This document shows positions 2,998-62,300 of a stretch of DNA of 64,000 nt, piece by piece. Source of the stretch: Acidimicrobiales bacterium (GTDB lineage: Bacteria > Actinomycetota > Acidimicrobiia > Acidimicrobiales > JAUJNH01); contig JBBSHS010000001.1 in NCBI GenBank assembly GCA_038232515.1, positions 36,407 to 100,406 of the forward strand. The letters run 5' to 3'. The notes below the pieces were generated by a model. The model was not told where the DNA came from. It was given only the letters and a program-made list of their open reading frames with translations, and ran no database searches. Position numbers and translations under genes: made by a program. Within the stretch, counting starts at the first letter, position 1. The number at the start of each line of letters is the position of its first letter.

Positions 2998-3087
<90 letters not shown>

Positions 3088-3156: not shown

Positions 3157-3294
3157 GGCCCGCCGCCTGCGTGCGGTGGCCGGGTCCTGCGCAAGGTCGT
3201 GCCGTGAACCGAGTCAGGGCCGGAAGGCAGCAGCTCTCAGCGGATCACCTCCTGTGCCGCAGATCGCCTGGCCATCGCACACAGCCGGCGGGTC
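3157..3294 (+). ncRNA. ffs: signal recognition particle RNA (small/4.5S-type)
   Basis: Conserved domain IV motif TCAGGGCCGGAAGGCAGCAGC (3214-3234, GGAA tetraloop) at the tip of a long imperfect helix whose base pairs CCCGCCG (3159-3165) with CGGCGGG (3286-3292). It sits in the classic position directly upstream of dnaX; exact ends are uncertain. Confidence 0.7.
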
Positions 3295-17875: not shown

Positions 17876-19009
<1,134 letters not shown>

Positions 19010-24296: not shown

Positions 24297-25607
24297 ATGA
24301 CCTGGCTCGACGCCTTTTCCCTGGCGGCCAAGAGCCTGGGCCGGCGGGCCGGCCGGGCCGTCCTGACCGTGCTGGCGGTGGGCCTGGGGGCGACGCTCCT
24401 CGTCGCCCTGCTGACCATCGCCGGCACGGCCCGTACCCGGGTGCTGTCGGAGCTTTCCAAGGGCGGCCCCCTGGCCGGCGTCAAGGTGGCGGCGGCCGAG
24501 CCCGACCCCACCCAGATCGACGAGGACAACGCCAAGCCGGGCGCTCCCAAGGACCTCGACGAACGGGCCCTCGACCAGATCCGGGCCCTGCCGGGCGTCG
24601 GCTCGGTGGTGCCGGTGGTGACGGCTCGGATCGTGGTCGTGCCCACGTCGCTGCCGCCGACCGTCACCCTGTCCAACACCGACGTCCCCGGCGGCTTTGC
24701 CGAGACGGTCGTCGGCGCCAACCTGGGCCGGATCTCGGCCCTGCCCATCTCCATCCTGGCCGGCCGACTCCCCACCGCCGGGGCGTCGACCGAGGTGGCG
24801 GTCACGCCCGGATGGCTCCAGCAGCTGGGTCTGGGGCGCAAGGAGGCGGCGTCGGTCGTCGGCCAGACCATGGTCCTCGCTGCGCCCCGGGGCCGGGGAC
24901 GGGGCCTGCAGGGGCGGTGGACCAAGGCGACGGTCGTGGGAGTCGTGGCCCAGGAGGCGGCCAGCGGCCAACTGGTCATGGACCAGGGCGCCGTCACCGA
25001 GGCTCGGGCGTGGTCGCAGGCCGGTGGGCCGGTGGGCCGGTTCAGCCAGCCCAGCTCTCCCTACGCCGGTCTGTTCGTCGTGGCCCGCCGCCTCGACCAG
25101 GTGACCCAGGTACGTCAGGAGATCACCCAGGTGGGCTACTCGACTCAGGCCCCCGAGAACCTCATCGCCTCGGTCCAGCGCTACCTGAGGGTGGTGGAGA
25201 TCGTCCTCACCGGCATCGGCGCCATCGCCCTGGTCATCGCCTCGCTCGGCATCGCCAACGCCATGTTGGCCGCCGTGCGCGAGCGGCGTCGGGAGATCGG
25301 CGTGCTGAAGGCCATCGGCGCCAGCGACGGCGACGTGTTGCGGCTGTTCCTGGTGGAGGCGGCCGTCCTGGGCCTGGTCGGTGGGGCGCTGGGCACCCTG
25401 ACGGGATGGGCCATTGCGTCCGGCGTCGGCTCGGTGGTCAACACCTATCTGACCGACCAGGGACTCGCCGGGGTGCGCCTGTCGCTGCCGGGCTGGGTGG
25501 CCCTCGGCGGCGTACTGGGCTCGATGGTCCTCGCCCTGCTGGCCGGCACCGCGCCGGCCGTGCGGGCCGCCCGCCTGCCGGCCCGGGAGGCGGTGGGAGC
25601 GGCATGA
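24297..25607 (+). CDS. ABC transporter permease (FtsX/MacB-type)
   Basis: N-terminal TM, a large extracytoplasmic domain, and a C-terminal FtsX 3-TM bundle (ERRREIGVLKAIGA). Confidence 0.85.
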   Translation: MTWLDAFSLAAKSLGRRAGRAVLTVLAVGLGATLLVALLTIAGTARTRVLSELSKGGPLAGVKVAAAEPDPTQIDEDNAKPGAPKDLDERALDQIRALPGVGSVVPVVTARIVVVPTSLPPTVTLSNTDVPGGFAETVVGANLGRISALPISILAGRLPTAGASTEVAVTPGWLQQLGLGRKEAASVVGQTMVLAAPRGRGRGLQGRWTKATVVGVVAQEAASGQLVMDQGAVTEARAWSQAGGPVGRFSQPSSPYAGLFVVARRLDQVTQVRQEITQVGYSTQAPENLIASVQRYLRVVEIVLTGIGAIALVIASLGIANAMLAAVRERRREIGVLKAIGASDGDVLRLFLVEAAVLGLVGGALGTLTGWAIASGVGSVVNTYLTDQGLAGVRLSLPGWVALGGVLGSMVLALLAGTAPAVRAARLPAREAVGAA

Positions 25608-26380
25608 GCCGGGCCTGGCGAGGTGGGGTGGCCAGACGGGCTCTGAGCGGCGTGGTCGTCCTCGTCGCGGTGCTCGTGGTGCTGGCCGCCGGGTGCGCCA
25701 GCCCGAAGCCGAAGGTGGCGGGGCCGCCGCTGGCGCCGCCGCCAGTCAGGGTCGTGTACGTTGCCGTCGGCGCCAGTGAGACGGTCGGGATCGGAGCCGC
25801 CGATCCCCTGAACGAGGCATGGCCCCAGGTGCTGTTCCGCAAGGATCTGCCCCCCGGGACGGTCTTGGAGAACTTCGCCATACCCGGCGCCACCGTGGCC
25901 GACGCCCTGCAGCGGGAGGTGCCCGACGCCGTGGCGCAGTCGCCGGCCCTGGCCACGGTGTGGCTCAACGTGAACGACATCAACCGGCTCGTGCCTGTGG
26001 CCACCTACAAGCAGCAGTTGGACGACCTGGTCCACCGGCTGCGACGGGGAGGAGCCACCAGGGTGCTGGTGGCCAACACTCCACCGCTCGACCACCTGCC
26101 CGGCATCCTGGCCTGCGGTGACCGCCCGCCGCCCGGCGTCCGCTGCCTCGCCAATGGGCCGCTTCCCGGCCTGGCCGCGCTCGACGCCACCGTCGACGCC
26201 TACAACGCGGCCGTGGCCCAGGTGGTGCAGTCCGAGGGAGCCGTGCTCGTCGACCTGCACGCCGCCGGCCTGGCGGCCCGGGCCGACGGTAGCGAGGCCT
26301 CGCTGGTGGCCTCCGACGGTTTCCATCCGTCGACCGTCGGTCACGCCGCCATCGCCGCCCAGTTCGCCGCCGGGTTGTAG
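25604..26380 (+). CDS. SGNH/GDSL hydrolase family lipoprotein
   Basis: Signal peptide with lipobox LAAGC, block I VAVGASET, block V SDGFHPS. ATGA overlap with the permease stop. Confidence 0.8.
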   Translation: MSRAWRGGVARRALSGVVVLVAVLVVLAAGCASPKPKVAGPPLAPPPVRVVYVAVGASETVGIGAADPLNEAWPQVLFRKDLPPGTVLENFAIPGATVADALQREVPDAVAQSPALATVWLNVNDINRLVPVATYKQQLDDLVHRLRRGGATRVLVANTPPLDHLPGILACGDRPPPGVRCLANGPLPGLAALDATVDAYNAAVAQVVQSEGAVLVDLHAAGLAARADGSEASLVASDGFHPSTVGHAAIAAQFAAGL

Positions 26381-26384
26381 CGAA

Positions 26385-26537
26385 GGGGTGGGGCGTCGCC
26401 CCTCCCCCTCGCGCTCCCCCTCCGCTTTGGGAGCTCGCTTTCGCTTGCCCTCATCTTCCGCAAGGACCGGCAAGCCGGATCCTTGCTCAGTGTGGGGGGC
26501 AAGACCCCCCACGCCCCCCGGCCGGCTCCGCCGGCGG
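26385..26537 (+). repeat. GC-rich triple-hairpin interspersed repeat, family 1, copy A
   Basis: Shares a roughly 110-bp core with 27994-28108 (inverted), 33165-33307 and 61544-61620 (inverted, truncated). Hairpins are CAAGGACCGG/CCGGATCCTTG, GTGGGGGG/CCCCCCAC and GCCGGC/GCCGGC. Confidence 0.8.
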
Positions 26538-27965
26538 GCTGGCACTGATCTCGGAAGGTCGATCCTCGGCTGGGTTTGGCGACGGGGGCTTGCCCTCCGG
26601 GGGCGTTGTCCTGCTTCTCATTCGCTGGGCGAACCCCCACGCCACCAGGGCCGTGGCCAGGGCGTAGGAGGCTCGGCCCAGGGCCAGTTGGTGGGGGTGG
26701 TCGAGGATCACGGCGAAGAACTCGACTTCGCCGGCCACCGCCACCGCCGCCCACCACGGCATGGCCGCCAGCGTGGCTACGGCCAGCAGGGCCACCGCGT
26801 ACCAGGGCTGCACCGGCGTGGCCACGAGGAAGAGAACGCCCAGCACGGCCACGGCCCCGACCTCGACGGGGGGCCGCCGCCACGCCACCCACGCCATCAC
26901 CGCGGCCACGGCCAGCAGGGCCAGAGCGGTGGTGACGTTGCCGGGCAGGCCCAACAGGCCCAGGAGCAGGAACCGCGAGCCGGTGTCGTAGTGCTCCTCG
27001 CGCAGGTACGAGGGCAGGTAACCGAGCACCTTGAGGCCGACAGCCAGGACGTGGGGGAGATAGGCCAGGCCGCAGACGGCGGCGAAGGCGCCGGTCACGG
27101 TCAACGGCCGGCGGCGCCACAGCGCGGGCAGGATGAGGGCGGGGTACAGCTTGACCATGGCGGCCAGGCCGAGCAGGCCGCCGGCCAGCCACGGCCGTTC
27201 GCGGCGGTGGGCCAGTAGGGCCCCGATGAGCAGGGCGATGGCCAGCCCGTCTACGTGGGCGTTGTTGGTGATCTCCAGCACCGCCACCGGGCACAGGGCG
27301 TACAGGACCACCAGGCGCTCGTCCCGCCCGAAGGCCCGTAGGGCCGCCACGAGCAGCCCGCACAGGATCAGGTCGACCAGGCCCGCCACCGCCTGCCACC
27401 CCCGCTCGTGGCTGGCGATGCCCACCACCGCGTACACCGCCCGGAACCACCCCTGGGCCACCGGCGGGTAGATGGTGCGGGCGTCGGGTCGGTTGATACG
27501 GGTGCAGCCGGGCGGCCGGTCGAGGGCTGCGCACTGTCGGGCACCGGGCCACAGCCAGGGTTCGCGTAGCTGGGCCAGCGCCGGCGAGGAAGGTGGGTAG
27601 CGGTAGGGGTCGACACCGGCGGCCTGGACCCGGGCCTCCCACGAGTAGCGGTACACATCGTCGGAGGTCGACGGGATACCGGCCAGGGCGGCCACCCGCA
27701 GCAGGGCGGCGAACGCCAGGACCACCAGGATCGAGGTCCGGGCCGGCAGGCGCAGGGCACAGCGCACCGCCACCACCCATGCCAGCACCCACACCGCGAG
27801 CCGTGCCATCAGCGCCCACCGGTCGCCCAGGATCAGCTGCCGGGCGCAGTCCGCCGAGAGCACGACCCCCGCACAACCACTGACCAGAAGCCCCACCACG
27901 GTCCACCGCGAAGGCTTCTCAGTCCCACAAGCATTCTCTTGACCTTCCTGGGCGCCAAGAGTCAT
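26487..27965 (-). CDS. GT87 / DUF2029 family polyprenol-phosphate-sugar-dependent glycosyltransferase (GT-C fold)
   Basis: About 11 TM helices; the SDDVYRYSWEARV....G.DPY loop motif typical of mycobacterial PimE-like mannosyltransferases. Start at ATG 27965; the last 17 codons and the stop lie inside repeat copy A. Confidence 0.75.
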   Translation of the reverse strand: MTLGAQEGQENACGTEKPSRWTVVGLLVSGCAGVVLSADCARQLILGDRWALMARLAVWVLAWVVAVRCALRLPARTSILVVLAFAALLRVAALAGIPSTSDDVYRYSWEARVQAAGVDPYRYPPSSPALAQLREPWLWPGARQCAALDRPPGCTRINRPDARTIYPPVAQGWFRAVYAVVGIASHERGWQAVAGLVDLILCGLLVAALRAFGRDERLVVLYALCPVAVLEITNNAHVDGLAIALLIGALLAHRRERPWLAGGLLGLAAMVKLYPALILPALWRRRPLTVTGAFAAVCGLAYLPHVLAVGLKVLGYLPSYLREEHYDTGSRFLLLGLLGLPGNVTTALALLAVAAVMAWVAWRRPPVEVGAVAVLGVLFLVATPVQPWYAVALLAVATLAAMPWWAAVAVAGEVEFFAVILDHPHQLALGRASYALATALVAWGFAQRMRSRTTPPEGKPPSPNPAEDRPSEISASPPAEPAGGRGGSCPPH

Positions 27966-27993
27966 GTGGTCGCGGCCAATGGCGACGGTTTCT

Positions 27994-28108
27994 GGCGGCG
28001 GCCGGGGGGCGTGGGGGGCTTCGCCCCCCACATGCAGCAAGGATCCGGCTTGCCGGGCCTTGCGGGAGATGAGGGCGAGCGCAGCGAGCTCCTCAAGGGG
28101 AGGGGGCC
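27994..28108 (-). repeat. GC-rich triple-hairpin interspersed repeat, family 1, copy B (inverted)
   Basis: The reverse complement aligns with copy A over hairpins 1-3. It fills the epimerase-GT87 intergenic gap and contributes the last 5 codons and the stop of the epimerase. Confidence 0.8.
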
Positions 28109-29085
28109 CGCGCCATCTCGGCCATGCCCTCGTCGAAGCCCACGGCGGCCTGGAAGCCGAGCACGTCCGCAGCCCGGGCGGGCGAGGCGACGACGTGACG
28201 GACGTCGCCCAGTCGGTAGCCACCGACGACCTGGGGACGGGGCGCCGTCGGCCCGGTTGCGTCGGCCAGGGCATTGGCCATGTCGAGGACGGTCTTTGGT
28301 CGGCCGCTGGCCACGTTGAGGGCCACGAAACCGCTGACATCGGCGACGAGGGCCAGCCGATTGGCCACGGCCACGTCGGCGACGTGCACGAAGTCGCGGG
28401 TCTGGCCACCGTCCTCGAACACCTGGGGAGCCCGTCCCGACGCCAGCGCCGACCGGAAGATGGCGGCCACCCCGGCATAGGGCGTGTCGCGGGGCATGCC
28501 CGGGCCGTACACGTTGTGGTAGCGAAGGGCCACCACCGACCCGGCTGACTCCCGGGCCCAGCACGCGCACAGGTGCTCCTGGGTCAGCTTGGTGGTGGCG
28601 TAGACGTTCCTGGGGTCGACCGGCGCATCCTCGCCCACCAGCTCCCAGGCCAGCGGCGCACCACACGCCTCACAGGGTGGCTCGAAGCGGCCCTGCTCCA
28701 GGTCGGCCACCGAACGAGGCCCGGGACGGACGCGGCCGTGGTCCGGGCACCGGTAGCGGCCCTCGCCGTACACGACCATGGACGACGCCAGCACCACCCG
28801 GCCCCCGAAGCCGGTGCGCCACAGTGAACCGAGCAGGACGGCGGTACCCATGTCGTTGTTGTGGACGTAGTCCGTGACGTCGCTGAAATCGACGCCCAGG
28901 CCGACCTTGGCCGCCTGATGGCACACGGCGTCCGCTCCGACCAGGGCCCGGTCGACGGCGGCCGGGTCGGTGACGTCCTCACCCTCGACGAGGTCGAGCA
29001 CGCGAACGCTGTAGCCCAGGCGTTGCAGTTCACGGACCACATGCGTCCCGATGAAGCCGGCGCCCCCGGTGACCAGGACCCTCAC
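28093..29085 (-). CDS. NAD-dependent epimerase/dehydratase (UDP-sugar 4-epimerase-like SDR)
   Basis: VLVTGGAGFIG Rossmann motif and the YATTK catalytic motif. GTG 29085 overlaps the kinase stop (GTGA). Confidence 0.9.
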   Translation of the reverse strand: MRVLVTGGAGFIGTHVVRELQRLGYSVRVLDLVEGEDVTDPAAVDRALVGADAVCHQAAKVGLGVDFSDVTDYVHNNDMGTAVLLGSLWRTGFGGRVVLASSMVVYGEGRYRCPDHGRVRPGPRSVADLEQGRFEPPCEACGAPLAWELVGEDAPVDPRNVYATTKLTQEHLCACWARESAGSVVALRYHNVYGPGMPRDTPYAGVAAIFRSALASGRAPQVFEDGGQTRDFVHVADVAVANRLALVADVSGFVALNVASGRPKTVLDMANALADATGPTAPRPQVVGGYRLGDVRHVVASPARAADVLGFQAAVGFDEGMAEMARAPSP

Positions 29086-31816: not shown

Positions 31817-33157
31817 GTGATGGCCAAGGCGCCGGTGGCCGGCCTGGTCAAGACCCGCCTCTGTCCTTCCCTCACCTCCGCCGAGGCCGCCGAGGTGGCG
31901 GCCGCGGCCCTGGCTGACACCCTCGAGGCGGTGGCGTCGTGCGGGGCCGATCGCCGCATCATCGCTCTGGACGGTGAGCCCGGGCCCTGGCTGCCTCCCG
32001 GCTTCACCGTGGTGCCCCAGTGCGGAGGCGGCCTCGACCAGCGGCTGGCGGCAGCGTGGGATCAAGCCGGAGGACCGGGTCTGCAGATCGGCATGGACAC
32101 CCCCCAGGTGACGCCGGACCTGCTCGACGACGCCTTGGGCCGCCTGGACGGGCCGACCGGCACGAACCGTCTGGGCGGAGAGAAGGGCCGGAGCGGCCAC
32201 GACAGGCCCGATGCCATGGGCGGTACCGATGCGGTCCTCGGTCTTGCCCCCGATGGCGGCTGGTGGGCCATCGGCCTCCAGCACGCGGACAGCCGGGTCT
32301 TCCTAGGCGTCCCCATGTCGACGACCGGGACGGGCAGGGCCCAACTGGGCCGCCTCCGGCGCCTCGGCCTCCGGGTGGAGCTGCTGGACCAGCTGAACGA
32401 CATCGACACCGTGGCCGATCTGGCCGAAGTGGGCGCCCTTGTCCCGCGTTCCAGGACCGGGTCGCTGGCTGCCCGCCTCGACGTCGCCGCCCGTGGTCCG
32501 CGCCGCTGCCACTGCGCCTCCGGGCAGCCGTCCGCCTTGTGCTCCCACCACCGCCCGGTGCTGATGGCCGGGGTGAGCCTGGCCCTGCGAGCCCACGACG
32601 GTTCCCTCCTCGACGTCGGCACAGACCGTTGGCACGGACCGCCCACGGCGGAGGACGAGACCGTGCTGGCCGGCCTCACCGGGCCCGTGCTCGACGTGGG
32701 CTGTGGCCCCGGTCGAGCGGTCCTGGCCCTGGTCCACCGGGGTGTCATGGCCCTCGGCACCGACTCGTCGCCACGGGCCGTGGCCGTCGCCCGACGGGCC
32801 GGTGTCAGCGTCCTGCAACTCTCGGTGTTCGACCGGGTACCCGGCGTCGGCCGGTGGCGCACCGCTCTGCTGCTCGACGGCAACCTCGGCATCGGTGGTG
32901 CCCCCGTGCGCCTGCTGCAACGGCTGGGCGACCTGCTGGCGCCCGGAGGCGAGGTGGTGGCCGAGGTCTAAGCGTCGGGTCGGGGCTGCCGATTGCTCAG
33001 GGCCCGCCTCGAACGCGACGGCCAGACCACGCGGTGGTTCCCGTGGGCGGTGGTCGGCGCCGATGCCGTCGCCGCGCTGGCGGCCGAGACCGGTCTGCGT
33101 CTCGACGGCATCGACACCCATGGGGACCGCCACTTTGCCCGGCTCTCCAACCCATGA
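31817..33157 (+). pseudogene. DUF2064 (TIGR04282-like) domain fused to a class I SAM methyltransferase, interrupted by an in-frame TAA
   Basis: VMAKAPVAGLVKTRL... DUF2064 N-terminus, then LDVGCGPGRAVLAL methyltransferase motif I. TAA at 32969-32971, after which the same frame stays open with high GC3 for 61 codons (…RLERDGQTTRWFPWAVVGADAVAALAAETGL…HFARLSNP) to TGA 33155-33157. Confidence 0.7.
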
Positions 33158-33164
33158 GCGTGAC

Positions 33165-33307
33165 GGGAGGGGGGCAGGCCCCCCTCCCGGCCTCCCCCCT
33201 CGAGGAGCTCGCTCCGCTCGCCGTCTTCCCGCCAGGACCGGCAAGCCGGACCTGGCTCTATGTGGGGGACAAAGCCCCCCACACCCCCCGGCCGGCTCCG
33301 CCGGCGG
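33165..33307 (+). repeat. GC-rich triple-hairpin interspersed repeat, family 1, copy C
   Basis: Begins with its own perfect hairpin GGGAGGGGGGC/GCCCCCCTCCC, then the family core. Hairpin 1 reads CCAGGACCGG/CCGGACCTGG, a compensatory variant. Confidence 0.8.
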
Positions 33308-33347
33308 TGCTCGGAACTGGTCGTCACGCCGGGATCTCGGTCGCCCG

Positions 33348-34417
33348 AAGCTCTGCTTCCTGCTCCGCGGCGCCCTCAGCCACATCCACCAGAACCCACA
33401 GCCCTGGCTCACGCTCCCGTCACGCCCGGCCGGCTTCTATCGCATTACCCAGAGCGTCCATGTGGCTACCGGCATCGCCAGCATCCCGATTCTGCTGGCC
33501 GAGCTCGGGACGGTCTGGCCGAGGATCGTGCAGTGGCCGCCGTTCACCTCGGTGGCGTCCGTGATCGAGCGCCTGTCGCTCATTCCTCTGGTCGGTGGAG
33601 GCCTGTTCCTGCTCTTCACGGGCACGGCCAACCTGGTGGAGTGGTACCCGTGGTCTTTCGGCTTCCGGGCCGCCCACTTCTGGATGTCGTGGGTGACGAT
33701 GGGTGCCCTGGTCGCCCACATCGGTGGAAAGTGGACGCTGACCCGCTCCGCCCTCGGCAGGGGCTCGACACCGCTGGCCCAGGCCAACCTAGCCACCCTC
33801 GACGTGGCTGAAGCCAAGACCGGGGGGCTGACGAGGCGCGGCTTCCTGGGTACGGTGGCCGCCGCCTCCGGCGTACTGACGGTCGCCACCGTCGGCGAGG
33901 CGGTCCGGCCCTTGGCCGCCGTCAGCGTGCTGGCTCCCCGGGACCCGCGGGGCCACAGGGCCTGCCCGTCAACCGCAGCGCCGAGGCGGCCGGAGTCATT
34001 CCCGACGCCACCTCGGTCGACTACCGCCTCGTCATCACCGGCCGGGGTGTGGCCGCCGATGTGGCGTTGACGGCGGACCAGGTCCGGACCATGGCCGCCC
34101 ACCGGGCCACCCTGCCCATCCAGTGCGTCGAGGGTTGGAGCGTGAGCGCCCGCTGGCAGGGAGTCCCGGTGCGTGACCTGCTCATCCTGGCCGGCGCACC
34201 GGCGGGCCGGTCGGTGCGCATCGAGTCGATCGAGCACGACGTATACGGATCTTCGATCTTGAACCCTCTGCAGGCCAGCGATCCTGACACGATGCTGGCC
34301 ACGCATGTGCGCGGTGAGCTCCTGCACATCGAGCACGGGGCCCCGGTGCGGCTGATCGCCCCCAACCGCCCGGGTGTGGAGCAGACCAAATGGGTCACCA
34401 GGGTCGTGGTGCTGTGA
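33348..34417 (+). pseudogene. molybdopterin-dependent oxidoreductase (sulfite-oxidase-like with N-terminal membrane domain), disrupted
   Basis: Homology runs LCFLLRGALSHIHQNPQPW...YRITQSVHVATG...WYPWSFGFRAAHFW in the frame of ORF 32703..34070, then continues as GPQGLPVNRSA...LPIQCVEGWS...APVRLIAPNRPGVEQTKWV in the frame of ORF 34049..34417. There is a 1-nt gap at about 33950-33955 (GGCCAC, expected GGCCCAC) and no ATG/GTG/TTG start between repeat copy C and the conserved region. Confidence 0.7.
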
Positions 34418-34436
34418 CAGGGGGACAGGCGGCAGC

Positions 34437-34946
34437 ATGGACAGTACGACGACGATATCGGGCTGCCCCCACGACCCGATGGCCGCCAAGGAGGGCGTCG
34501 GGCCCGCGTTCTGGATTGGGCCCTCGTCGGTTGGGTGGTGATCGCCTACGGGATCTACGGGATCTTCCACAACCGCGCCGAGACCCGACCGACGTTGAAG
34601 CCACGGGAGCTGGGACGCTTTTTCGGCGGGATGCTGGTGGGCCACGACGTCGTCTTCGTGCCCTTGGCGTTGCTGGTCGGTGCGGCCCTGACCCGCCTGG
34701 TACCGGCAAGGGTTCGGGCCTTCGTCCAAGGCGCCATGGTGGTAGCGCCACCTCGCCCTGTTCGCCTACCCGGCCATTCGCGGCTTCGGTCGCCACGTCG
34801 ATCCCGCCAATCACACCCTCGTGCCCCGCAACTACGCCCACGGCCAGGTGTTGGCCGTCGTCCTGGTGTGGGCCGGTGCCCTCGTGCTGGCCACCATCCG
34901 CGTGGTGCGGTGGCGGCGTCGCCGCCCGCCGATCTCCCCTGCCTGA
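34437..34946 (+). pseudogene. conserved 4-TM membrane protein (usual partner of the Mo-oxidoreductase), frameshifted
   Basis: The middle segment VLDWALVGWVVIAYGIYGIF...FVQGAMVVA (frame of ORF 34535) continues as HLALFAYPAIRGFGRHVDPANHTLVPRNYAHGQVLAVVLVWAGALVLATIRVV in another frame (extra C near 34748). An ATG at 34437 with good GC3 lies in the C-terminal frame, implying a second shift near 34500. Confidence 0.45.
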
Positions 34947-39793: not shown

Positions 39794-40102
39794 TCAGATC
39801 TCGAACTGCGAGGCCACCCGGCTGGCCAGATGAGGGGTGATCAGGGCGTCGATCACGGCGCGGTGGGCGGGATGATCGAGGTAGGCGAGGTAGCCGGCAT
39901 GGTCGTCGAAGTCGGCCACCACCGCCAGCGAGGCGTTGGCCGGGCCCAGGCCAAGGTCGGGACCGACGGTATAGGCGCGGATCTCAGAGATCACGGCAGG
40001 CAGGCGGGCCAGCTCCCCGGCCACGAAAGCGGCATGGCCCGCATCGGTGTCGGTGGTGAAGGTGATCAGGGCACAGTGGCGGATCATGTCCTGATCGACC
40101 AT
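39794..40102 (-). CDS. Dabb (stress-responsive alpha/beta barrel) family protein
   Basis: MIRHCALITF..., YLAYLDHPAHRAV. Start at ATG 40102 or, more typically for the family, ATG 40087. Confidence 0.8.
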   Translation of the reverse strand: MVDQDMIRHCALITFTTDTDAGHAAFVAGELARLPAVISEIRAYTVGPDLGLGPANASLAVVADFDDHAGYLAYLDHPAHRAVIDALITPHLASRVASQFEI

Positions 40103-40106
40103 AGGC

Positions 40107-40205
40107 GCCGAAGCCACCGAAGCCACCGAAGCGGCCGAAGCCACCGAAGCGGCCGAAGCCACCGAAGCGGCCGAAGCGGCCGAAGCCACCGAAGCCGCCG
40201 AAGCC
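40107..40205. repeat. 11 tandem copies of a 9-bp unit RCCGAAGCS
   Basis: GCCGAAGCC ACCGAAGCC ACCGAAGCG GCCGAAGCC ... fills almost the whole divergent intergenic region between the Dabb and ATL genes. Confidence 0.9.
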
Positions 40206-40216
40206 GCCGGCCGGCC

Positions 40217-40504
40217 ATGATGTGGGCCGTGCTGGCTGACTTCAGCCGTCGAGTGGTCGCCGTCGTGCGGGGTCTGGCGGTGGGCGAGGTGGTGAGCTAT
40301 GGAGACGTGGCCGCCCAGGCCGGCTACCCCGGAGCGTCCCGGGGCGTGGGCGCGGTGCTGGCCCACAGCCGCGAGCCACTGCCATGGTGGCGGGTCGTGA
40401 CCAGCACGGGTCGGCTGGTCCCGGGCAAGGAGGCACGACAGGGCGACCTTCTCCGGGCCGAGGGCGTCACCGTCGAGGGCGGACGGGTCGTCCGCCCGCT
40501 GTGA
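40217..40504 (+). CDS. MGMT-family alkyltransferase-like (ATL) protein lacking the acceptor cysteine
   Basis: O6-alkylguanine transferase DNA-binding domain (VSYGDVA...GASRGVGAVL) with PWWRV in place of the catalytic PCHRV. Confidence 0.8.
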   Translation: MMWAVLADFSRRVVAVVRGLAVGEVVSYGDVAAQAGYPGASRGVGAVLAHSREPLPWWRVVTSTGRLVPGKEARQGDLLRAEGVTVEGGRVVRPL

Positions 40505-41078: not shown

Positions 41079-41404
41079 GGTCGGGCCGGGAAGCGGTCCA
41101 AGGCGGCACCGATGGAGCCCCCGGCCTGGCGGGCGAGGTGCTTCGCCCGCGCCGCGGTGGGGCCGACGAAGCATTCGTCGACCGTCTCGTCGAACAGATC
41201 GAGCCAGCGGACGAGGTGGTCAGGACCGAACGGGGCCCTGGCCAAGATGGCCATATGGGCACGCACGACATTGCCGTGATAGTCCGAGCCGCCCAGAAGC
41301 CGCTGTTCCCAGAAGGCGCACAGAAGCGGGACATGGGTCGACCAGTCGACGTCGGCGGCACGGAAGACCGGGCCGAGACCCGAGATTGGGTCGTGGGGTG
41401 GCCT
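41075..41404 (-). pseudogene. group III-like truncated hemoglobin, 5'-truncated (no usable start)
   Basis: The open frame reads PHDPISGLGPVFRAADVDWSTHVPLLCAFWEQRLLGGSDYHGNVVRAHMAILARAPFGPDHLVRWLDLFDETVDECFVGPTAARAKHLA, matching trHb from the LGPxF region onward. The frame is closed by TGA at 41405-41407, the first ATG/GTG/TTG is at 41266, and about 25-30 N-terminal residues are missing where the family-2 hairpin sits. Confidence 0.6.
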
Positions 41405-41450
41405 TCAGGGTCTGATTTGGCCCGGGAAGGCCACGTGGCGACCCAATCTC
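41382..41450. repeat. 69-bp near-palindromic long-hairpin repeat, family 2, copy 2
   Basis: GAGATTGGGTC-GTGGG-GTGGCCTTCA...GGAAGGCCAC-GTGGC-GACCCAATCTC. It matches copy 1 at 51/69 positions, or 55/69 if copy 1 is reverse-complemented. Confidence 0.65.
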
Positions 41451-41483
41451 GCGGCGGTCGTTCACTGGATACGATGGGAGGCA

Positions 41484-41855: not shown

Positions 41856-42305
41856 ATGCCTGCGCAGAGGGAACGTAAACGGGCTCTGTCCGAGCCCACC
41901 GACGAGCAGGTCTCTCTGGCCGTGGGCACGCTCAAATTGCTGGCTGATCCCACCCGGCTGCGGATAATCTGGGCCCTGCTGCACGGCGAGCACTCCGTCA
42001 ACGAGCTCGCCGACCACGTCGGCGGTCAAGCCGCGTCCGTGTCCCAACACCTGGCCAAGCTGCGTCTGGCCCGGCTGGTCAAGACCCGTCGGGATGGGAC
42101 CCGCATCTTCTATGAGACCCAGGACATCCATGTCCGTCAACTCATGGAAGAGGCGCTCTTCCACGCCGATCACGTCGGCCGTCAGATGCAGGACCACGGG
42201 CCGGACCGCCCGGCACCCGTCGGCAGGCACGGCGCAGAGCCGTCCGGGGCCGCGAAGGGCCCCGGCGCCGTGGGCCGTCCGCCCAAGGGCGGCAGGTCGG
42301 CGTGA
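41856..42305 (+). CDS. ArsR/SmtB-family metal-responsive transcriptional repressor
   Basis: LKLLADPTRLRIIWALLHGEHSVNELADHVG...SQHLAKLRLARLV winged HTH, with a His-containing C-terminal tail. Confidence 0.85.
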   Translation: MPAQRERKRALSEPTDEQVSLAVGTLKLLADPTRLRIIWALLHGEHSVNELADHVGGQAASVSQHLAKLRLARLVKTRRDGTRIFYETQDIHVRQLMEEALFHADHVGRQMQDHGPDRPAPVGRHGAEPSGAAKGPGAVGRPPKGGRSA

Positions 42306-43438
42306 ACGACGAACGAGCGCCCCAGCACGAAGGGCACGCCCACGAAGGCCACGCCCACGAAGGCCACGCCCACGAAGGCCACGCCCACGAAGGCCACGCC
42401 CACGAAGGCCACGCCCACGAAGGCCACGCCCACGAAGGGCATCCAAGGGGCGTCCGGGGACTGATCGCCTCCCTCTTCGCCCCGCACAGCCACGACGCCG
42501 CCGATTCCATCGACACCGCTCTCCAGACCAGCGCCGACGGCATCCGGGCACTGAAGATCTCCCTCGCCGCCCTTGCCGTCACTGCGGGGATTCAGCTGGT
42601 CGTAGTGATGCTCAGTGGGTCGGTGGCTCTCCTGGCCGACACCGTCCACAACTTTGCCGACGCACTGACCGCCCTCCCGCTCGGACTGGCCTTCTGGCTC
42701 GGTCGCCGACCGCCGACCCGACGGTACACCTATGGCTACGGCCGGTCCGAGGATCTGGCCGGCATCTTCATCGTGGCGATGATCGCGCTGTCTTCGGCGG
42801 TTGCGGCATGGGAGGCAGTGCAGCGACTGGTCCATCCCCATCCGGTCGGACACGTCGGATGGGTCATCGTCGCCGGCGTCGTGGGCGCCGCCGGCAACGA
42901 ACTGGTGGCCGGCTACCGCATACGGGTCGGCCGCAGGATCGGCTCGGCCGCGTTGGTGGCCGACGGGATCCACGCCCGTACGGATGGACTGACCTCATTG
43001 GCGGTCGTCGCCGGAGCCATCGGTGTTGCCCTCGGTTACCAGCTCGCCGATCCCATCGTCGGGCTCGTCATCACGCTGGCCATCCTGCTGGTGCTGAAGA
43101 ACGCGGCCCGCGGCATCTACCGGCGCCTGATGGACAGCGTCGATCCGGGTCTTGTCGAGCACATCGAAGAGGTGCTGTCCAAGGTGGCCGGAGTCCAGGC
43201 TGTCGAAGCCGTCCGGGTCCGTTGGGTGGGCCATGAGCTGCGGGCCGAGGCCGAGATGGTGTCCGACGCCGATCTCTCTCTGGCCGATGCGCACGCCATC
43301 GCCGAGGAGGCGCGCCACGAGCTCCTGCACCGGATCGCTCGCCTGGCTGAGGTGACCATCCATACGAACCCCTGCACCCACGGTGGTCGTGACCACCACG
43401 CCGCCACGCATCACCACTTCCCCGGCCGCAGCCGCTGA
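42302..43438 (+). CDS. cation diffusion facilitator (CDF) family metal exporter with His-rich N-terminal repeat
   Basis: GTG overlaps the ArsR stop (GTGA). (HEGHA)x8 N-terminus, six TM helices with ADTVHNFADALT and HARTDGL motifs, and a C-terminal cytoplasmic domain. Confidence 0.85.
   Translation: MNDERAPQHEGHAHEGHAHEGHAHEGHAHEGHAHEGHAHEGHAHEGHPRGVRGLIASLFAPHSHDAADSIDTALQTSADGIRALKISLAALAVTAGIQLVVVMLSGSVALLADTVHNFADALTALPLGLAFWLGRRPPTRRYTYGYGRSEDLAGIFIVAMIALSSAVAAWEAVQRLVHPHPVGHVGWVIVAGVVGAAGNELVAGYRIRVGRRIGSAALVADGIHARTDGLTSLAVVAGAIGVALGYQLADPIVGLVITLAILLVLKNAARGIYRRLMDSVDPGLVEHIEEVLSKVAGVQAVEAVRVRWVGHELRAEAEMVSDADLSLADAHAIAEEARHELLHRIARLAEVTIHTNPCTHGGRDHHAATHHHFPGRSR
42325..42444 (+). repeat. 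15-nt tandem repeat CACGAAGGCCACGCC x8 inside the CDF coding region
   Basis: Six internal units are nucleotide-identical; the first and last units differ slightly. It encodes HEGHA repeats. Confidence 0.9.
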
Positions 43439-47406: not shown

Positions 47407-47694
47407 GGAGCGAGGCCGATCGTCTTCACTTCCGACACCTTCGCACCCAGCGATCCAACCAGACCAGCCTGAGCAGGTCCCGAAGGGTCATGGAGGGCTG
47501 GCCGAGACACCGGCGCCCGCCACGCGCCGGGATACGGCGCCAGCGCTGGCGATGGCTCTGATGTCTTCGGACATGCTGAGGGCGAGCGCGACGCGCTTCG
47601 CCGGGGAGAGCCGGCGGTAGACCGAGATCTGGACCGCCCGAGCGGCCGGCGTCGTAGCGGCCGGCCACCGGCCACGACCTCGTTCCTCCATCGG

Positions 47695-47769
47695 TCGGGC
47701 TGCCCGGATTTGAACCGGGGACCTCTGCGTCCCGAACGCAGCGCGCTAACCAAGCTGCGCTACAGCCCG
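47695..47769 (-). tRNA. tRNA-Pro (anticodon CGG)
   Basis: 75-nt cloverleaf: acceptor CGGGCTG/CAGCCCG, anticodon stem CTGCG/CGCAG with loop TTCGGGA, T-arm CCCGG-TTCAAAT-CCGGG; CCA not encoded. Confidence 0.85.
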
Positions 47770-61411: not shown

Positions 61412-61549
61412 ATGGTCGGAGTCGTGCTCGTCGTGTTGGTCCTGCTGGCCCTGATCCCGCTGTTCCTAATAGGGGCCGGCGTGGTGAGCGCCACGCTGGC
61501 CCAGCTCCTGAAGCGCGGTGCGGAGGCCGAGCACGAAGCCAGTCCCTGA
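61412..61549 (+). CDS. small hydrophobic ORF (45 aa), not in the ORF track
   Basis: MVGVVLVVLVLLALIPLFLIGAGVVSATLAQLLKRGAEAEHEASP; ATG start and consistently high GC3. No SD or family evidence. Confidence 0.3.
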   Translation: MVGVVLVVLVLLALIPLFLIGAGVVSATLAQLLKRGAEAEHEASP

Positions 61550-61620
61550 CGGACTGCCGGTCCATGCGGAAGATGAGGGCGAGCGAAAGCGAGCGCCAAA
61601 CAAGGGGAGGGGGCCTTCGC
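61544..61620 (-). repeat. GC-rich interspersed repeat, family 1, copy D (inverted, truncated)
   Basis: The reverse complement GGCCCCCTCCCCTTG...GCGCTCGCTTTCGCTCGCCCTCATCTTCCGCATGGACCGGCAGTCCGTCAGGG matches the 5' half of the family; hairpins 2-3 are absent. It sits between convergent genes. Confidence 0.7.
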
Positions 61621-62300
61621 TATATCGCCCATCTTGGTTGACCGAAGCGGTAGCCGACGGAGCGGACGGTGGAGATCAGACTGGCGTGGTCCTCGCCCAG
61701 CTTGGCCCGCAGCCGCCGGATGTGGACGTCCACCGTGCGGGCCCCGCCGTAGTACTCGTAGCCCCACACCCGGGACAGCAGCACCTCGCGGGTGAAGACC
61801 TTGCCCGGGTGGGTGGCCAGGAACTTGAGCAGCTCGTACTCCATGTAGGTGAGATCGAGAGGGCGGCTGGCGATGACTGCCTGGTAGGTCTCGAGGTTGA
61901 GGACGAGCGGCCCGTACTCGATCAGCTCGGGCCGGGTGCCGCGCCCGGTGCGCCAGAACAGGTGCTTGAGGCGGGCGTCCAGCTCGGCCGGCTGCACCGG
62001 GGCGAGGCAGAAGTCGTTGAACAGGTCCTCTCGAAGCTCCAGGTCCTTCACTTGGCCGGCGCTCACCACCACGAGCAACGGCTCGACGGGTGTGTCCCGC
62101 TTGCGCAGGGCGCGGCACAGTCCGAAGGCGCCCTCGGCGTCAGCGTCGGCGCAGACGATGGCGCCGGCCCAACCATCGTCGGGCTCGACGCGTCCGGCAG
62201 CATCGGCGGTCGGGACGGCGAGCCATGGGTAACCGGCCAGGTCGAGGGCGTGGCTCACCTGCGCCGGCGGCGGATCGGGGTAGAGCAGCAGCGGTTCCAT
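61620..62300 (-). CDS. glnR: GlnR-type orphan OmpR-family response regulator (atypical receiver)
   Basis: C-terminal winged helix (LTYMEYELLKFLATHPGKVFTREVLLSRVWGY...VRSVGYRF). The receiver lacks the N-terminal acidic pair and the conserved Lys. It is adjacent to two glutamine synthetase genes. Confidence 0.75.
   Translation of the reverse strand: MEPLLLYPDPPPAQVSHALDLAGYPWLAVPTADAAGRVEPDDGWAGAIVCADADAEGAFGLCRALRKRDTPVEPLLVVVSAGQVKDLELREDLFNDFCLAPVQPAELDARLKHLFWRTGRGTRPELIEYGPLVLNLETYQAVIASRPLDLTYMEYELLKFLATHPGKVFTREVLLSRVWGYEYYGGARTVDVHIRRLRAKLGEDHASLISTVRSVGYRFGQPRWAI

Follow-up and report, generated by a model that had tools for sequence, protein, structure and literature searches.

A composite palindromic repeat of probable REP/BIME-like type at gene junctions of an Acidimicrobiales genome

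A 64-kb stretch of DNA from an Acidimicrobiales bacterium (contig JBBSHS010000001.1, positions 36,407 to 100,406; hereafter the window; G+C content of 70.8%) was found to hold exactly four copies, named A to D, of a composite palindromic repeat. This element is probably a lineage-specific, non-autonomous mobile repeat resembling the repetitive extragenic palindromic sequences (REPs) and the bacterial interspersed mosaic elements (BIMEs). Our confidence, somewhat better than even, applies to this class and is much lower regarding the enzyme that would mobilize the element. Read in this way, the repeat adds one more example to a familiar class of elements and founds no new one. Alignment with relatives and with a sister strain shows that the repeat has gained copies at gene junctions, that copies are lost or truncated from strain to strain, and that they rewrite the ends of genes. 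Acidimicrobiia are a widespread uncultured actinobacterial group and, to our knowledge, small palindromic repeats, which are well studied in Proteobacteria, have hardly been studied in it at all.

Copies and architecture of the repeat

The copy search was confined to the 64-kb window and was supplemented with one copy (D′) from the sister strain. A profile built from the four copies retrieved these four with nhmmer (E-values of 1.9e-36 for A, 5.2e-34 for B, 7e-28 for C and 1.8e-20 for D) and nothing more at E<1, and the same four were retrieved by a covariance model. Besides, two diagnostic patterns matched 4/4 and 3/4 of the copies, with 0.00 matches expected from 100 shuffles. Pairwise identity over the long shared stretches was 82-88%. 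A preliminary description of this DNA had already placed four copies at or near these positions; its coordinates were approximately right and are corrected here to 26377-26547 (A, plus strand), 27984-28108 (B, minus strand), 33160-33319 (C, plus strand) and 61555-61622 (D, minus strand).

The full-length element measures about 160 nt and is composite, with a fixed module order in all copies. From 5′ to 3′, the modules are a head, an extra 5′ palindrome (H0), a C-rich tract with a linker, hairpin 1, hairpin 2, a C run, hairpin 3 and about 10 shared nucleotides. The left edge lies at the stop codon of the upstream gene (GTAG at 26377-26380 in A, ATAG in D) and is followed by CGAAGG; the head itself reads GTAG in A and GTGA in C. 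H0 is present in A (CGAAGGGGTGGGG / CCCCTCCCCCTCG) and in C (CGGGAGGGGGGC / GCCCCCCTCCCG), and is missing from B and D. The C-rich tract contains the conserved linker GCTCGCT-N-CGCTCGCC. Hairpin 1 is GCAAGGACCGG-CAAG-CCGGATCCTTGC, hairpin 2 is GTGGGGGGC-loop-GCCCCCCAC and hairpin 3 is GGCCGGC-TCC-GCCGGC, with lengths of 27, 21 and 15 nt, respectively, H0 being 31 nt long. Comparison with C and D′ indicates that the right end reaches about 10 nt past hairpin 3 (to about 26547 in A and about 33319 in C), and the ends of the element read GTAGCGAAGG... and ...GGCGGTGCTCGG.

In copy A, H0 occupies 26381-26411, the C-rich tract plus linker (GCTCGCTTTCGCTTGCC) 26412-26459, hairpin 1 26460-26486, hairpin 2 26492-26512 and hairpin 3 26521-26535, the right end GGCGGGCTGGCAC extending to about 26547. 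Copy C is also full length, with H0 at 33164-33189, the linker at 33207-33232 and hairpins 1, 2 and 3 at 33231-33256, 33262-33282 and 33291-33305. Copy B retains hairpin 1 (28037-28063) and hairpin 2 (28011-28031), and its hairpin 3 is degenerate through a 3-nt loop deletion and a mutated 3′ arm. The element had first been described as a triple hairpin; the three hairpins are real in A and C, but H0 had gone uncounted and full-length copies have four. Copy D, in turn, had been regarded as truncated after hairpin 1. Instead, the cut falls inside hairpin 1, after GGACCGGCA at 61555, so that D consists of TAG (61620-61622), CGAAGG, the C-rich tract, the linker and only the 5′ arm of hairpin 1. 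Another candidate explanation for D, by which an internal deletion would have fused hairpin 1 with the right end through a shared GTGCTCGG, was rejected, as alignment with the relative L079 identified the distal part as the native end of a small open reading frame (ORF) of 45 aa; it is the 3′ end of this ORF that had been counted as part of the copy.

Hairpins 1-3 were predicted by RNA folding in A and C, and B gave hairpins 1 and 2; in A and C, H0 and hairpins 1-3 form predicted stem-loops corresponding to short imperfect palindromes. Relative to dinucleotide shuffles, fold stability reached z-scores of -3.1 for A, -3.0 for C, -0.9 for B and -0.3 for D, only A and C exceeding the shuffles. 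Over 26 pairs, 92% of the cells were paired in the four copies. The compensatory change in hairpin 1 noted in the preliminary description (CAAGG/CCTTG versus CCAGG/CCTGG) is real, but the broader statement that structure is preserved rather than sequence went too far, having relied on this single pair. Among the three long window copies there is one compensatory pair (A-U to C-G, hairpin 1), which 51 of 500 column shuffles equal and which is therefore not significant. With D′ added, a second and adjacent compensatory pair appears in hairpin 1 (A-U to U-A); these values are reached by 7 of 500 shuffles, and slid controls showed none. Hairpins 2 and 3 display disruptions only, with no compensatory changes. 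In this tiny sample (the window copies and D′), the pairing of hairpin 1 appears to be maintained.

Judged from pattern scans, the repeat family is narrow and fast-evolving. The linker pattern, run against 185,579 species genomes, gave 19 matches and no family member: nine lay in the pheT coding sequence of Solirubrobacterales, and five were alphaproteobacterial or planctomycete repeats having only the linker in common. The hairpin-1 pattern gave 52 matches in JGI metagenomes and IMG/VR, mostly isocitrate lyase coding sequence, again with no member. The translated open frames of A and C (five, concatenated) had no match at E<=10 among 5.8 billion proteins; hence, no copies are concealed within ORFs called elsewhere, and no conserved peptide is encoded by the element. 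An Rfam scan of the window at the gathering threshold returned only the signal recognition particle (SRP) RNA and three tRNAs, permissive Rfam scans of the copies (E<=10) only chance microRNA-like matches with E>0.5, and BLAST against plasmids and phages only GC-rich chance matches of 26-41 nt, while literature searches with the linker and the flanking sequences gave zero matches. The preliminary description was therefore right that the element cannot be assigned to a described one, and no match to a known non-coding RNA family was found in Rfam. Separately, five soil metagenome contigs (L030, L038, L044, L048 and L059) carry a small repeat, GCACCGCC(C)TTCGGCGGTGC-TGCGCGGT-CCGGCAAGCCGG-ACCTTGCT, whose second hairpin has a core identical to the hairpin 1 core of the window element.

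Insertion, turnover and gene ends

Every copy sits at a gene boundary, as had been stated before, A and D lying between convergent genes and B and C between co-directional ones; copy C, however, is not benign, as it took the 5′ end of the downstream gene. The junctions were compared with those of the closest retrievable relatives (L020 and L021, whose GT87 glycosyltransferase is 85% identical), of an outgroup (L075, 56%) and of the sister strain (L083).

L020 and L021 have the gene order of the window, with no copy detectable at sites B or C, and their epimerase and GT87 genes overlap by 23 nt. In the outgroup, the epimerase/GT87 and methyltransferase/oxidoreductase overlaps are 20 and 4 nt, respectively. 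The tight junctions are therefore ancestral, and B and C were inserted in the lineage of the window. Measured against the gene overlap of the relative, the inserted DNA at B runs from about 28101 to about 27966. This copy lies on the minus strand between the NAD-dependent epimerase gene (28093..29085, minus strand) and the GT87 gene (26487..27965, minus strand), and supplies the last three to four codons (PSP) and the TGA stop of the former, close to the five codons proposed earlier. The epimerase ends ...ARA-PSP* at 28093, and homology with the 85% relative, which reads ALRDG-stop, ceases at ARA. The 5′ end of the GT87 ORF adjoins copy B, and the deposited protein starts at about 27896.

The opposite end of the GT87 gene is provided by copy A, which contains its last 16-20 codons (17 in the preliminary description) and its stop in antisense. 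Copy A sits between this gene and the convergent GDSL/SGNH lipase gene (25604..26380, plus strand), the TAG stop of which (26378-26380) is the TAG of the GTAG head. In L020, CGGCCGGCTTGGCCGGCAGGCGGGC lies directly 3′ of the GT87 stop and corresponds to hairpin 3 plus the right end of the element (z of 6.9 versus D′ and 4.3 versus A, against shuffles), with diverged traces of hairpins 1 and 2 upstream. A diverged copy, which escapes the profile, was thus already at site A in the 85% relative, and the repeat family therefore predates the split.

On the plus strand, copy C separates a DUF2064/methyltransferase gene (31820..33157, plus strand) from the remnant of a molybdopterin oxidoreductase gene (33351..34414, plus strand; frameshift at about 33950, no canonical start). 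It begins 3 nt past the TGA of the methyltransferase gene (33155-33157) and took the place of a spacer of about 80 nt and of the first 52 or so oxidoreductase codons; no ATG, GTG or TTG start lies between the upstream stop and the conserved oxidoreductase region. The methyltransferase gene has an in-frame stop at 32969-32971, also found in an independent Logan contig (99.83% identical). As a side observation, the three consecutive genes around C (31820-34892) look like recent pseudogenes, the third (homologue of 183 aa) carrying two frameshifts; they are still 72-84% identical at the protein level to the intact genes of the relative, in which PGAP1 and MauE genes, absent from the window, come next in line.

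Copy D occupies the gap of about 70 nt between the convergent stops of a GlnR-type response regulator gene (61620..62300, minus strand) and of the 45-aa ORF (61412..61549, plus strand), which is predicted to encode a single-helix membrane protein and lies between the RidA and glnR-like genes. The TAG stop of the regulator gene forms the left edge of D; since all 120 homologues listed have the regulator length of 226 aa, this stop codon is native. The sister strain, represented by an ENA contig of 879 nt (regulator 99% identical, DNA 98.3% identical across the glnR-like gene), carries the full-length copy D′ at this site, with hairpins 1-3 complete and 89.6% identity to A. Hence, the D of the window is a deletion derivative and the D site is strain-polymorphic. 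Insertion polymorphism, raised as a check in the preliminary description, is in this way demonstrated among relatives and strains.

Taken together, the sites form a dated series: one copy is old and diverged, two entered overlapping genes recently, and one is truncated in one strain but not in another. In this series, repeats uncouple operons, rewrite protein C-termini and are capable of destroying a neighboring gene. Besides, contigs break inside the element (L083), in H0 of copy C (L084) or 122 nt past the glnR-like stop (L077 and L078), which is consistent with repeats interrupting short-read assembly at these sites and would explain the contig breaks of the relatives. The covariance model and the motifs can be used to mask or annotate these repeats in metagenome-assembled genomes (MAGs), and this avoids mistaking repeat-derived protein tails for real sequence.

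The sequence 3′ of the glnR-like gene in L077 and L079 (TCGCCCTCAC-TCGCTGCGCTC) was tried as an older orthologous copy and kept as a weak lead only (z <= 2.5 versus shuffles), and a likeness of this motif to the ColE1/pUC origin region was discarded as a low-complexity coincidence. Right after the glnR-like stop, L077 (10679-10745) and L078 carry a tandem 2x31-nt unit, GGTCGCCCTCACTCGCTGCGCTCCGTTCGGG, and L079 (2675-2740) carries GATCGCCCTCACTCGCGGCTGCGGCG plus a hairpin. These units have the 12-mer CTCGCTGCGCTC and TCGCCCTCA in common with the window repeat, the overall similarity (z <= 2.5) not being significant.

Likeness to known repeats and alternative explanations

The assignment to a REP/BIME-like class follows from the palindromic modules, the GT(A/G)G head of copy A (the best-preserved one), the terminal TAG stop and the location after ORFs, together with the lack of terminal inverted repeats (TIRs) and target-site duplications (TSDs), the restriction to one lineage, the rapid gain, truncation and decay of copies, and the occasional damage to a neighboring gene. 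In alignments of the left end with the reverse-complemented right end, the scores were 16 and 12 with a shuffle mean of 14-15, no target duplications were found in the flanks of the copies, and no copy contains an inverted pair of one unit. GTAG REPs follow ORFs, the flanking genes being convergent or co-directional, and their terminus often provides a TAG stop (PMC3733652). With the system formed by these REPs and the REP-associated tyrosine transposases (RAYTs) (PMC2817692; PMC3733652), the window element shares short imperfect palindromes, in copy A only, a clear GT(A/G)G head (GTAG followed by H0), post-ORF sites between convergent and co-directional genes, a terminus giving a TAG stop (A and D), the absence of TIRs and TSDs, a species-specific sequence, a fast turnover, and complementary mutations that keep palindromy. 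However, whereas GTAG REPs are single palindromes of 20-40 nt or inverted pairs of them (REPINs), the window unit of about 160 nt combines four palindromes with a C-rich non-palindromic tract of 50 nt. REPs of this kind number tens to hundreds per genome, and their RAYT gene is flanked by two inverted REPs; the 64 kb hold four copies. Moreover, no RAYT is encoded in the window, and the host is an Acidimicrobiales actinobacterium while the text of the RAYT paper names no Actinobacteria. Because copies are known from 64 kb and the L083 contig, and because the unit is a 160-nt composite, a REP/RAYT system proper is not claimed.

BIMEs in E. coli, BOX elements in pneumococci and RIMEs (rhizobial intergenic mosaic elements) are composite modular intergenic repeats of stem-loops and linkers. 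Like them, the window element is a modular composite, has variants lacking modules and, as its position suggests, would be transcribed within 3′ untranslated regions (UTRs); unlike them, it has distinct hairpins in one fixed order, whereas BIMEs alternate the same REP types, and it has no sequence similarity to any of the three. The REP/BIME resemblance proposed in the preliminary description is thus supported with regard to REP-type behavior, but a strict BIME, with the same REP in alternating orientation, was not found. The element also recalls the IS200/IS605-derived palindrome-associated transposable elements (PATEs) through subterminal hairpins at both ends, the lack of inverted termini and of target duplication, and a left end adjoining a short conserved motif (TAG / TGAGC), which rests on four sites only (immediate left flanks TGTAG, TATAG, ATGAGC and, for B, GGCGCG); it differs in having no TnpA/TnpB nearby. 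Elements of this type insert 3′ of a fixed tetra- or pentanucleotide and show strand bias. The window copies lie in both orientations inside 64 kb and so reveal no single-strand (replication) bias, and the GC skew is too weak for leading-strand assignment.

The preferred route of spread would be movement in trans: a Y1/HUH transposase, of the RAYT or the IS200/IS605 type and encoded at another place in the genome, would mobilize the element as single-stranded hairpin DNA. Such an enzyme would cut beside the GT(A/G)G head, which would explain landing directly after stop codons, and the inserted element would then form the 3′ end of the transcript of the upstream gene. Several observations weigh against a REP-like mobile repeat. 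In all, five copies are known (A-D and D′), and the exact-pattern scans of genomes and metagenomes yielded no further members, a result that says no more than that the family is narrow and evolves fast. Only copy A has a clear GT(A/G)G head; the head is GTGA in C and absent, like H0, from B and D, which also sets the element apart from GTAG REPs, and the four hairpins are four different palindromes and not one alternating REP. No transposase, integrase or RAYT was found by Pfam annotation among the approximately 55 ORFs of the window, in agreement with the preliminary description, so a RAYT or IS200/IS605 enzyme is missing from these 64 kb. Hairpin-templated repair or template switching can yield compensatory changes in palindromes without selection, and the pseudogenes near C may equally explain why the insertion was tolerated. 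Further points of this kind are that no U-tract (intrinsic) terminator lies inside any copy according to a consensus scan, the hairpins being followed by C/G-rich sequence, and that only B and C can inform on orientation with respect to transcription, as A and D lie between convergent genes.

Among the other explanations, the one that survives best, although we consider it distinctly less likely than a mobile repeat, is a host-selected module, i.e., a portable Rho-dependent terminator or attenuator, or a 3′-UTR stabilizer, spread by recombination and kept to tune expression where operon genes join and where genes converge. On the sense strand of the upstream gene, every copy has a 5′ half with 45-56% C and 18-24% G (C/G of 2.3-2.8), which ranks in the top 0.2-0.8% of 55-nt windows of either strand. 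An unstructured stretch rich in C and poor in G, with stable hairpins behind it, is the established mark of Rho entry and pause sites. For the mobile repeat itself, we infer from this composition and the predicted folds a secondary role in transcripts as a Rho-dependent terminator or 3′-end structure: the C-rich 5′ half and the stable hairpins are probably a Rho-loading/pause module or a 3′-end protector, and such a structure would uncouple or lower the expression of the downstream gene. Should Rho indeed enter at the C-rich tract, high-GC bacteria would have in this family a natural and portable terminator. A host-selected module is further favored by this excess of C over G in the sense orientation of all copies, by the start of every copy at or a few nucleotides from the upstream stop codon, by the survival of hairpin 1 pairing through two double substitutions, by the persistence of hairpin 3 after the GT87 stop in the 85% relative, and by the decayed genes downstream of C, which are expected after polar termination. 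However, sites B and C are empty in the relatives, whose genes overlap there and are presumably coupled in translation; copy C removed the start of a gene; the D site holds a truncated copy in one strain and a complete one in another; unpaired changes accumulate in hairpins 2 and 3; and the methyltransferase gene upstream of C is broken too, which polarity does not explain.

Two bolder extensions are, taken together, doubtful. The first is that the element acts as a mobile termination cassette, a rut-like tract with pause hairpins that would impose Rho-dependent polarity at operon junctions; if true, it would silence downstream genes and start their decay, as the broken genes after C would suggest. 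The second, still bolder, takes the linker GCTCGCT-N-CGCTCGCC as the mark of a deep REP super-family with one conserved trans-acting recognition protein. Intergenic repeats sharing this linker occur in Rhizomicrobium, Acetobacteraceae, Pseudolabrys, a Planctomycetota MAG and another Acidimicrobiales MAG (L004, L005, L011, L014, L019 and L015); for the alphaproteobacterial ones, no Rfam family was found. They can be likened, by description, to CGTC-tagged REPs (PMC3733652). Indeed, the alphaproteobacterial REP-like repeats and the window element have in common the 16-nt linker GCTCGCT-K-CGCTCGCC, a C-rich block before it (CCCCTCACC versus CCCCCTCCCC) and a hairpin after it. At the tag position, copy C has CGTC and copies A, B and D have CCTC, an allowed variant of the CGTC tag (PMC3733652). 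In the other repeats, by contrast, the linker is one arm of a long palindrome (L019) and the hairpins are unrelated in sequence. As the matches were picked by a pattern forcing 21 of these bases and the motif is of low complexity, a common origin is unproven and may serve as a lead only.

A structured cis-regulatory RNA or a family of small RNA genes, riboswitch-like, appears quite improbable. The stable multi-hairpin folds of A and C (z about -3) and some hairpin 1 covariation would fit it, but no Rfam match was obtained at E<=10, no promoter-like site was found in the copies by a consensus scan, no gene class consistently follows the copies, truncation is tolerated, orthologous sites of close relatives lack the element and, beyond the linker, there is no conserved unpaired core resembling a ligand pocket. 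Largely refuted, and still less credible, is a miniature inverted-repeat transposable element (MITE) or solo end of a DDE-type insertion sequence (IS): the small size, the several dispersed copies, the truncated variants and the insertion polymorphism are as expected for it, yet the termini score as shuffles do, direct target duplications are lacking, and neither an IS or plasmid match nor a transposase in the window was found. Finally, the likeness to mycobacterial interspersed repetitive units (MIRUs) suggested in the preliminary description fails. Like MIRUs, the element is actinobacterial, intercistronic in operons in sense orientation (B and C) and overlaps the upstream stop codon, supplying stop and C-terminal codons; MIRUs, however, are tandem units of 46-101 bp with coupled mini-ORFs, whereas the window units are single, dispersed and hairpin-forming, copy C has no start codon in its sense frames to restart downstream translation, the translated frames have no homologues in 5.8 billion proteins, and A and D lie between convergent genes, so that a MIRU-like unit with a mini-ORF coupled to the flanking genes is hardly to be considered. 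Tested against the definitions of a MITE, a MIRU, a strict BIME, an intrinsic terminator and an Rfam family, the copies matched none.

Other features of the window and its relatives

According to Pfam annotation, the approximately 55 ORFs of the window are ordinary chromosomal genes, and the GT87 and glnR-like products are 100% identical to deposited NCBI proteins; the nearest protein matches assign the window to uncultured Acidimicrobiales. The SRP RNA gene, of the bacterial small type (3178-3276), adjoins dnaX-ybaB-recR, an ordinary chromosomal context, and the tRNA genes, at 914-1000, 3000-3087 and 47693-47769, comprise two tRNA-Ser (CGA and GGA) and one tRNA-Pro (CGG). The 45-aa ORF next to copy D looks unannotated, exists as a called protein in a public collection, and keeps its position and sequence in relatives, where it measures 51-52 aa (L079 and L082). 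One assembly of the 56% outgroup (L076, 11679-21368) has a phage-integrase gene and prophage-like genes directly behind GT87, whereas housekeeping genes follow it in the sister assembly (L075); insertions have thus recurred downstream of GT87.

Other repeats were also noted in the window. A second and unrelated palindromic family occurs at 17886-17975, upstream of asd, and at 41380-41468, upstream of a small ORF and an ArsR/cation-efflux operon. Its members, GAGATTGGGTCG..GTGGCCTTCAG..CTGAAGGCCAC..CGACCCAATCTC, form a near-perfect long hairpin of about 75 nt; their folds have z-scores of -3.9 and -7.6, and nothing in Rfam matches them. Besides, tandem repeats are present in coding regions of the minus strand at 40080-40218 and 42296-42456, with periods of 9 nt (11 copies) and 15 nt (8 copies), and probably encode low-complexity segments rich in Gly and in His/Val.

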